This document shows positions 35,901 to 38,351 of a stretch of DNA of 64,000 bases, in pieces. Every line of letters begins with the position of its first letter. Positions within the stretch are counted from its first letter, which is position 1. The stretch lies in the NCBI RefSeq assembly GCF_016903815.1, contig NZ_CP069973.1; one strand, written 5' to 3'. A program made the position numbers. The DNA is from Escherichia coli (GTDB lineage Bacteria > Pseudomonadota > Gammaproteobacteria > Enterobacterales > Enterobacteriaceae).

Positions 35901-38351
35901 TATGTTCGGTATGTACGGCAGAAAAGTAAAGTTATCCCATTCTGAGATGATTGAAGATAATAAAAAAGACTTGGCTGTAAATGAACATGGGTTGACATGT
36001 CCATTTACACAAGATTGCTGGTAATGCTGCCAACTTACTGATTTAGTGTATGATGGTGATTTTAAGGTGCTTGCGTGGCTTCCATTTCCATCAGATGTCC
36101 TTCCTGCTCCGCTACTGAAGGCGTGGTGCGTAACGGCAAAAGCACTGCCGGACATCAGCGCTATCTCTGCTCTCATTGCCGTAAAACATGGCAACTACAG
36201 TTCACTTACACCGCCTCTCAGCCCGGTACGCACCAGAAAATCATTGATATGGCCATGAATGGCGTCGGATGTCGCGCCAGTGCACGCATTATGGGCGTTG
36301 GCCTCAACACGGTTTTACGTCACTTAAAAAACTCAGGCCGCAGTCGGTAACCTCGCGCATACAACCGGGCAGTGATGTGATTGTCTGCGCTGAAATGGAC
36401 GAACAGTGGGGCTACGTCGGTGCTAAATCACGTCAGCGCTGGCTGTTTTACGCGTATGACAGGATACGGAGGACGGTTGTGGCGCACGTCTTCGGTGAAC
36501 GCACTCTGGCCACACTGGAGCGTCTTCTGAGCCTGCTGTCGGCCTTTGAGGTCGTGGTATGGATGACGGATGGCTGGCCGCTGTATGAATCACGCCTGAA
36601 GGGAAAGCTGCACGTTATCAGCAAGCGTTACACTCAGCGCATTGAGCGACATAATCTGAATCTGAGACAACATCTGGCAAGGCTGGGACGGAAGTCACTG
36701 TCGTTCTCAAAATCGGTGGAGCTGCATGACAAGGTCATCGGGCATTATCTGAACATAAAACACTATCAGTAAGTTGGAGTCATTACCAGATTGCTCAAAT
36801 AGATGTATTGATTATATTAATCCAGAGCATAAAAAAACGATAAAGGCTTTACAAGATGCTGGCTATCTCAAGTAACATCTCAAAGATGGTAATATTTATT
36901 TTTGCTATTATAATCGTTGTTTTTTTATGCGTGACTACTTATCTTTATTTACACAAAGATGAATCTCTTGTAAGTAAGCATTACATAAACTATATGGCAA
37001 TACCAGAAAGTGATGGGGTTTTTACATGGCTCCCAGATTTTTTTCCGCATGTAGCGGTGGATATATCAATATCCACAAATGTAGAAGATGATTATTTTTT
37101 TTCTTATTTTTCCCTAACAATCGATGATGGGGGGAGGTTTAAGAAAACATTGACGGTGAGGGCCAGGGAACAAGTGGCGAAAATCGTATCAGAGAATGAT
37201 CCAGATACAAAAAAAGTGTGGTGTAAATATGGTAAAATACCAGGGCAAGGGGATAGCGTAAACCTTTTTTTTGTTGGTGAAATTAATGTTACGCATTATT
37301 TTATAACAAATATTGGAGCTGGATTGCCTGATGCTTGTGCAGAGTAATTGCTTGAATTAAGAGTCTATCCCATATCGAAGTCGTCAACTTCGTAGTGAGG
37401 AAAAGTAAAATCCCTGACTGAGAAAAGACATGTCGGCTATTGTGTAAAGCCATATAGCTCAGACGATGAATATCTACTCGTATTCAGTTGTTTATTGAGG
37501 GTGAGTTCCGACCCTGAAACAACAAATAAAATGAATAGTCAGAGAGTTTACATAGAATTGCACTAGTCTTTTACGATATCTGACATTGTGTAATACATAT
37601 TCAGCCATGCATTAATTAAAATGTTTCGTGTTTAATGTGAGTCCCTATCTGAAAATAAATAATCCTTCCGGATTAAAATAAATTCTCGCCGGGAAAGAAA
37701 GAGGAAATAAACCATTAGCGGAAAACCAGCGGCACGCCAGGGTGACATGCCCCAGTACGGCGGCCCGATAGTCCAGGGTTCAGCGGGGGTACTGATAGTC
37801 GCGCCGACTGCATCGAGAACTCCATACAACTTTTTACGGAACGTCACCTGATAAAATTTGTTCAGTATCGTCTTTTGAGATTCTCAAGGTTATGGAGTAA
37901 CCAGACAGAACGGACACCACTGTCGGAGATAAAAACCCCCTGTTTACGCAGCTCGTTGCTGGCCCGGTGCTGACCATGTGTCGGGAAAGCGACGGTGTAA
38001 TCAACAACAGCCTGTTCAGTTGCCTCATCGGTACGGTTCTTAAGGTTAGGAGCGCGGCGACTACGATTAATCTGCACATCCACACCGCCTTCAGCGGCCA
38101 GTTCGCGGTAACGATAAAACGTTTCACGCGAAACGCCCATGATTTTACAGGCTTTTGATACGTTGCTGAGTTCTTCAGCCAGATTGAGCAAACCGGCTTT
38201 GTGTTTGATGACGGGATTGGCAGTATGAAGCATGAGAGTTACCTCTTGTTTTGGATAAGGATTCGACACTCATATCAAAACCGGTAACTCTCAACCTTTC
38301 AAGGCCATGTGTCAGATCAAGTCGCGACTAATACAAATACGTCCCTCATCA

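Follow-up and report, generated by a model that had tools for sequence, protein, structure and literature searches.

Remnants of an rhs gene and of an IS481-family element form a probable deletion scar at the right-hand edge of the Escherichia coli rhsD island

The window analysed in this work is a 64,000-nucleotide stretch of Escherichia coli contig NZ_CP069973.1 (assembly GCF_016903815.1), taken at its full length. The genes around the interval of interest are, in order, ybbP, an RHS core gene, IS1, an orphan-toxin tail, a 163-aa ybbD-type ORF, a 96-nt CDS (ylbI) and ylbG, both incomplete in the RefSeq annotation, mnmH and allS. Positions 37400-38400 are 100% identical to E. coli strain 7/2 and to many other genomes. 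In K-12 MG1655 the order is rhsD, ybbC, ylbH (pseudogene), ybbD (pseudogene), ylbI (b4632, pseudogene), ylbG (b0502) and selU/mnmH. The equivalent K-12 interval had been suggested correctly in the initial annotation, and it corresponds to ylbI and ylbG. Both genes are orthologous to those of the window (97.5% identity over window positions 36787-38600) and have the same junctions, the same ATT codon and the same 123-codon ORF, while the ylbG allele of the window differs by four private nonsynonymous changes. As ylbI and ylbG are already annotated, what is refined here is the assignment to an IS family, the position of both deletion junctions and the distribution in the population. The features are collected in Table 1.

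Table 1. Features between the rhs toxin region and mnmH, in window coordinates.
Feature	Position	Strand	Description
IS1	36020-36787	+	768 bp; close to the 3' end of the rhs toxin region; 8-bp target duplication AGATTGCT
AT-rich spacer module	37483-37665		84% over 185 nt to L006 6921-7105
Putative residual ribosome-binding site/leader of the lost rhs gene	37694-37713	+	AAAGAGGA...; distant-mode matches and alignment
ylbI, rhs 5' remnant	37714-37808	+	ATT in place of ATG, then 31 codons of a putative PAAR-type N-terminus
Putative rhs/IS deletion junction	37802-37811		rhs codon 31/32 to IS nt ~999-1009; same in all alleles examined
Second IS piece	37809-37868/37877	-	IS nt ~931/940-999 (60-69 nt); transposase codons ~277-299
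ylbG ORF	37862-38233	-	123 codons + stop; HTH-only transposase stump; K-12 b0502
Putative internal-deletion junction of the IS	37869-37877	-	Similar 9-mers CAAAAAACG and CATAAGACG; overlapping alignments
N-terminal IS piece	37869-38335	-	IS nt 1-467; left inverted repeat, leader, first ~121 transposase codons
IS leader hairpin (predicted)	38233-38293	-	GAGAGUUACC...GGUAACUCUC; MFE -25 kcal/mol, z=-4.3; 0/200 shuffles equally stable
Left terminal inverted repeat	38309-38335	-	TGTATTAGTCGCGACTTGATCTGACAC; 27/27 match to intact copies from three unrelated contexts
Last of the ancestral ybbP-mnmH spacer	38336-38348		13 bp; comparison with island-free loci L007 and L008

Similarity to an rhs 5' end had been reported near 37717-37805. 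Formal alignment placed it at 37714-37808 against the rhs start of the window itself (31897-31991), with 78.9% identity over 95 nt (E=1e-18), compared to E values of at least 0.25 for the second-best match in the rest of the window. Identity to K-12 rhsD was 82% over 78 nt. Comparison of the ORF translations showed that about 24 of the 26 N-terminal residues are those of the main rhs gene, and the ylbI translation gave a partial match to the Pfam model PAAR_motif (23.8 bits against a cut-off of 27, E=5e-5). The unusual ATT initiator, also part of the initial annotation, is aligned with the ATG of three intact rhs genes and was present in the five alleles that cover the site. The loss of similarity, which had been estimated at about 30 codons, occurs at codon 31/32 (window position 37808). 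Upstream, weaker rhs similarity begins about 20 nt 5' of the start codon, near the ribosome-binding site. Hundreds of E. coli 'RHS element core protein' genes matched from this leader (37694-37696) to 37808 at 75-82% identity in a distant-mode search, and in the same search for an intact rhs gene carrying the ylbI leader these 75-82% matches were all that was obtained. The closest paralog was found in an integrase-linked island of strain JNEC-KY203 (90.5% over 74 nt).

The main rhs gene (31897-36024) encodes a YD-repeat core, an RHS-associated core domain (PxxxxDPxGL) and a C-terminal toxin. None of them is present in ylbI, and the DNA after 37808 is IS-derived. The intact start and full-length ORF of Rhs proteins (NF041261) are replaced in ylbI by ATT and 31-32 codons. 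At the level of sequence, the comparisons indicate a former second rhs gene to the left of the IS, which would have had its own ribosome-binding site and PAAR-type start and would have read toward the IS.

The AT-rich spacer module ahead of ylbI has a counterpart in the rhsE-type locus of strain 500111 (L006 in Table 1), situated 3' of an immunity-like gene and 5' of an ISAs1 H-repeat; the spacer is part of the preceding ylbH/ybbD orphan module and not of ylbI. The same rhsE-type locus harbours another short rhs 5' remnant (L006 4737-4771, 83% to window 37696-37730), located directly after a vgrG gene and ahead of an ISEc1 element. Consequently, IS-truncated rhs starts are not unique to the rhsD locus. 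A terminator-like hairpin followed by a T-run lies antisense in ylbI (37731-37751, minus strand); as one such site is expected by chance over the interval scanned, it is probably meaningless. The promoter scan did not detect any promoter. In K-12, an in vitro RNA polymerase (RpoD) binding peak has been listed between ybbD and ylbI, suggesting that polymerase binding may have survived in the promoter region of the dead rhs gene.

On the other side of the junction, 37809-38335 (minus strand) is a relic of an IS481-family element whose parent has 1201 bp, and it contains ylbG. The ORF had been described as lying immediately beyond the rhs fragment. This description overlooked a second IS piece at 37809-37877: the relic abuts the rhs fragment directly, with the IS stump joined to rhs codon 31/32. 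The junction was placed by comparing the window directly with rhs and both isoforms of the IS, and, as 5-7 nt (CCGAC(TG)) fit either parent, its breakpoint cannot be assigned to a single base. The N-terminal piece is 95.8% identical to isoform A (L003 and L004) and 85.9% identical to isoform B, while the second piece is closer to isoform B (L011; 94.2%, 65/69) than to isoform A (81%). Between the two similar 9-mers (9-nt microhomology), IS nt ~468-930 (~465 bp) are gone. The second piece is out of frame with ylbG; this internal deletion shifts the frame and the ylbG ORF ends after 2-3 more codons. IS nt 1000-1201, including the right inverted repeat, are also missing. The left repeat ends at 38335, 13 bp away from the mnmH stop codon (38349-38351).

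Of the features that define an IS481 element, the relic retains the N-terminal HTH and the left inverted repeat, but neither the right repeat nor a full-length transposase; with its right end gone, it also lacks the second flank that a target duplication would need. As the DDE/integrase-core part, the right repeat and ~670 of the 1201 bp are missing, the relic cannot transpose. As judged from these comparisons, it evidently derives from a 1201-bp IS481-family element whose left end would have been 13 bp downstream of the mnmH stop codon and whose transposase would have read toward ybbP.

Intact copies of this element have 1201 bp and imperfect terminal inverted repeats of ~27 bp (TGTATTAG...). 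In one of them, the right repeat matches the left one and the element is flanked by a clean 7-bp duplication of its target (ACTGACT). The ylbG ORF, its leader and its terminal repeat are together ~95% identical at the DNA level to intact 'IS481 family transposase' elements of E. coli and E. albertii plasmids (CP057646, NZ_CP099872 and NZ_OY856300 are plasmid examples of the 1201-bp element). Complete copies were also present elsewhere in the genome in 73 complete E. coli genomes. In the scan of one genome per bacterial species the family was widespread (Tenebrionibacter, Pluralibacter, Erwinia, Klebsiella, Mixta, Arsenophonus, Alteromonas and others); Candidatus Arsenophonus triatominarum harbours dozens of related copies. 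The two isoforms are 88% identical overall and have identical ends. The first 100 bp of L003/L004 and L011 are 100% identical; identity falls to 79-92% in the middle and rises again to 95-99% in the last ~200 bp, a pattern indicating recombination among copies. Among 79 loci plus the plasmid copies, no single IS copy matched both retained pieces. As the pieces resemble different isoforms and no sampled copy fits both, either the parent was an unsampled mosaic or two IS copies contributed, and a history of one IS and two deletions is not proven.

The initial annotation had recognised a minus-strand ORF of 135 aa encoding an HTH protein. This ORF exists (37862-38269, starting at a GTG), but the homologous start is the ATG at 38233, which is that of K-12 YlbG and of the IS481-family transposases and gives 123 aa. 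The proposed resemblance to the N-terminal part of a transposase was borne out. The product contains a complete HTH_29 domain (Pfam, E=4e-18) and aligns with positions 2-112 only of the 284 of the NCBIfam IS481 transposase model (NF033577; 85.9 bits against a cut-off of 224). The catalytic integrase-core (DDE) part is absent, as there was no rve-type Pfam match in ylbG.

The pN/pS ratio of ylbG against the nearest active IS was 0.91 for the K-12 allele and 1.32 for the window allele, compared to 0.07-0.08 between active copies over the first 120 codons. Changes on the ylbG lineage amounted to ~12 nonsynonymous to 1 synonymous, which fits neutrality (binomial p=0.2), versus ~12 to 40 between active copies (Fisher p=7e-6); both counts were tallied by hand, that of the ylbG lineage from the difference table. 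Five residues that do not vary among 20 active copies of Enterobacterales, Alteromonas and Vibrio have been replaced (L54Q, A85T, G104D, R113L and F119L). Two strains have a 1-bp deletion at 37931 (annotated as 'frameshifted') and one allele is cut by IS3. The ORF is open in most of the alleles seen; however, with only ~13 substitutions, the lack of a stop codon is uninformative. Neither purifying selection nor an ORF intact across strains, which would characterise a functional regulator, was observed for ylbG. Because pN/pS is about 1, invariant residues have been replaced and broken alleles exist, ylbG is, by its pattern of substitutions, a decaying stump that appears to evolve neutrally, and not a conserved regulator.

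The leader of the relic is predicted to fold into a hairpin in which half of the ribosome-binding site and the first base of the AUG are paired. Such hairpins are a usual device of insertion sequences against read-through translation. The Rfam scan revealed nothing beyond a sub-threshold match to psRNA2 (38236-38407, plus strand; 30.9 bits against a gathering score of 65). This match is essentially the IS481-family leader and left repeat on the other strand, suggesting that IS ends may underlie this 'sRNA' family.

Rearrangement is not restricted to the two stumps. A simple insertion of IS1 interrupts the toxin end of the main rhs gene, and the rhs ORF consequently ends inside IS1. The rhs core is joined to a toxin end that in K-12 is an orphan (ylbH; 35422-36019, 94%), and the K-12 rhsD tip and ybbC are absent from the window. 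Compared to K-12, this arrangement looks like a textbook exchange of orphan modules. The ybbD-type ORF (36856-37347), a pseudogene in K-12, is intact in the window (163 aa, full-length match to NCBIfam NF011298) and its position makes it the likely immunity partner of the ylbH-type toxin. In other genomes, the entire rhs element has been lost through an IS1-associated deletion with its endpoint at 37781, within ylbI, and IS3 is found either at 37841, between both stumps, or at 37889, where it truncates ylbG. These IS1 and IS3 breakpoints fall within ~110 bp. Together with the toxin-module swap, the IS1 of the window and the variable contents described below, they support well the suggestion, already made in the initial annotation, that the rhs 3' flank is a rearrangement hotspot.

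Next, we considered the distribution of the two stumps. Both were present beside mnmH in ~2,800 of 5,426 complete E. coli genomes (~52%), including K-12, B strains, O157:H7, O104:H4 and O111, and they are fixed in genomes carrying the rhsD island. In the other ~48%, similarity ends 7-21 bp past the IS end, and the ybbP-mnmH interval is either empty (a ~140-bp REP-containing spacer) or harbours a dinQ-like type I toxin gene, or a Hcp-toxin gene and three DUF2931 genes. The interval thus exists in at least four versions in E. coli. When window positions 31469-38348 were compared to three of these loci (L007, L008 and L009), each variant was seen to replace the spacer right from the ybbP stop codon. 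The scar is the right-hand edge of the rhsD accessory island.

The junctions were shared by the eight alleles compared (8/8), as far as the sequence covers them. A full-length IS next to mnmH was not detected in the complete E. coli genomes using a chimeric query composed of the mnmH end and the complete IS (coverage up to 87%). When 100,044 species representatives were scanned, no ylbG-type stump was seen in another species among the best 80 of the 207 candidates, with the exception of one 'Alistipes' contig; the other hits that were kept match residues 1-122 only, at 67-89% identity. The E. coli species representative evidently lacks the rhsD island. The exception is a 3,995-bp contig (L017, CASFSC010000074.1) of an 'uncultured Alistipes sp.' MAG with 94-97% identity to mnmH-ylbG-ylbI-ybbD-ylbH; it is E. 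coli DNA, a binning contaminant.

The interval is very probably a non-functional scar of two gene stumps, generated by deletions at the right edge of the rhsD accessory island. The initial annotation had proposed a scar of rhs recombination or IS activity; now both parents have been identified, rhs similarity has been confirmed by formal alignment, and the HTH ORF is neither an intact, conserved regulator nor unrelated to transposases. In the starting state, an IS481-family element would have been inserted beside mnmH, with a second rhs gene separating it from the ybbD module. A single illegitimate, microhomology-associated deletion would then have removed the DNA from rhs codon ~32 to IS nt ~1000, that is, the rhs body, whatever came after it and the right end of the IS, which would have been immobilised. 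A second deletion, between the similar 9-mers, would have removed IS nt ~468-930 and shifted the frame, leaving the 123-codon, HTH-only ylbG. Afterwards, both stumps would have drifted neutrally, carried along with the island. We infer the order and the place of these deletions, since no pre-deletion intermediate was found.

The place and time of the deletions are the point on which a second reading departs from this one. The rhs stump and the IS relic might have been fused already in a donor genome before E. coli gained the island, the whole block arriving by homologous recombination in ybbP and mnmH; ylbI would then never have been part of a resident second rhs gene. This reading differs from the favoured one only in where and when the deletions occurred, and we regard it as the less likely of the two, although several observations agree with it. 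The junctions are the same in every island-bearing genome examined, with no intermediate among the 5,426 complete genomes, and each island variant replaces the entire ybbP-mnmH spacer. Moreover, ylbI is only 75-82% identical to the resident E. coli rhs 5' ends, its best match (90.5% over 74 nt) being in the integrase-linked island of a single strain. By contrast, the 13 bp beside the left end of the IS align with the island-free E. coli spacer, suggesting insertion into an E. coli-type spacer, and the species representatives of other genera have the IS but not a ylbG-type stump (best 80 of 207 candidates).

In another reading, YlbG would be a domesticated HTH regulator: having retained the DNA-binding domain of the transposase, it could, for instance, attach to the inverted repeats of newly arriving IS481-family elements and reduce transposition, in the manner of IS1 InsA, IS911 OrfA or the Tn5 inhibitor. 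We consider this very unlikely. In most alleles the ORF is open and preceded by a ribosome-binding site of its own, it encodes a complete HTH_29 domain, the K-12 annotation is that of a putative regulator, and the same IS is present in active copies in E. coli (the 73 genomes mentioned above) and on plasmids. However, the pN/pS of about 1 contrasts with the 0.07-0.08 of active copies, five family-invariant residues have been replaced, and frameshifted and IS3-truncated alleles occur naturally. Furthermore, the gene is missing from about half of the E. coli genomes, strains MINF_8D and PRO_A-1028 hold both ylbI/ylbG and the full-length IS, and the ribosome-binding site would be occluded by the predicted leader hairpin. 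Functional work on ylbG or ylbI was not found in the literature, where both genes are mentioned for the use of the site as a landing pad, in an in vitro RpoD binding list and in pan-genome lists. At least as doubtful is a residual activity in trans, in which a decaying YlbG would still serve as an HTH-only inhibitor, occupying the inverted repeats of newly arriving copies of the same IS481-family element and making its transposition rarer in the island-bearing half of E. coli.

Finally, the view that the rhs likeness arose by chance, or that the ORF encodes an ordinary HTH regulator with no relation to mobile elements, can be dismissed: beyond the shortness of the rhs match (95 nt) nothing speaks for it, and it is ruled out by the E value of 1e-18 against at least 0.25 for the next-best match in the window and by the identity (95% at the DNA level) that the ORF, together with its leader and terminal repeat, shares with intact IS481-family elements.

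The biological weight of the scar is small; it is of an ordinary kind and shows no sign of function. Nevertheless, the ybbD-ylbG gap, which contains ylbI, has been used as a chromosomal landing pad in MG1655 and treated as a neutral integration site, and this 'neutral' site would really be junk DNA. The precise origin proposed for ylbG, an IS481-family stump left by two deletions, counters its K-12 label of 'putative DNA-binding transcriptional regulator'. More generally, the ybbP-mnmH interval is a variable slot for alternative cargoes of interbacterial toxins (Rhs, Hcp-toxin, dinQ-like toxin, or nothing).

The relic shares with the 1201-bp IS481-family element an identical 27-bp left repeat, the leader hairpin and the HTH N-terminus, and differs from it in the loss of the DDE/integrase-core part, the right repeat and ~670 of the 1201 bp. 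Truncated transposases acting as regulators are known from IS1 (InsA), IS911 (OrfA) and Tn5 (the inhibitor), where they are encoded by active elements and are under selection. Like them, ylbG encodes a DNA-binding N-terminus devoid of the catalytic domain; unlike them, it appears to evolve neutrally and has broken alleles. Rhs 'orphan' modules are displaced C-terminal toxin/immunity cassettes, located 3' of the main rhs gene, that keep a piece of the core for recombination. Unlike these orphans, ylbI is a 5' fragment (the start and 31 codons) with no toxin, immunity gene or YD-repeat core, but, like them, it is situated in the 3' flank of the main rhs gene and would be a by-product of rearrangement of the rhs locus.
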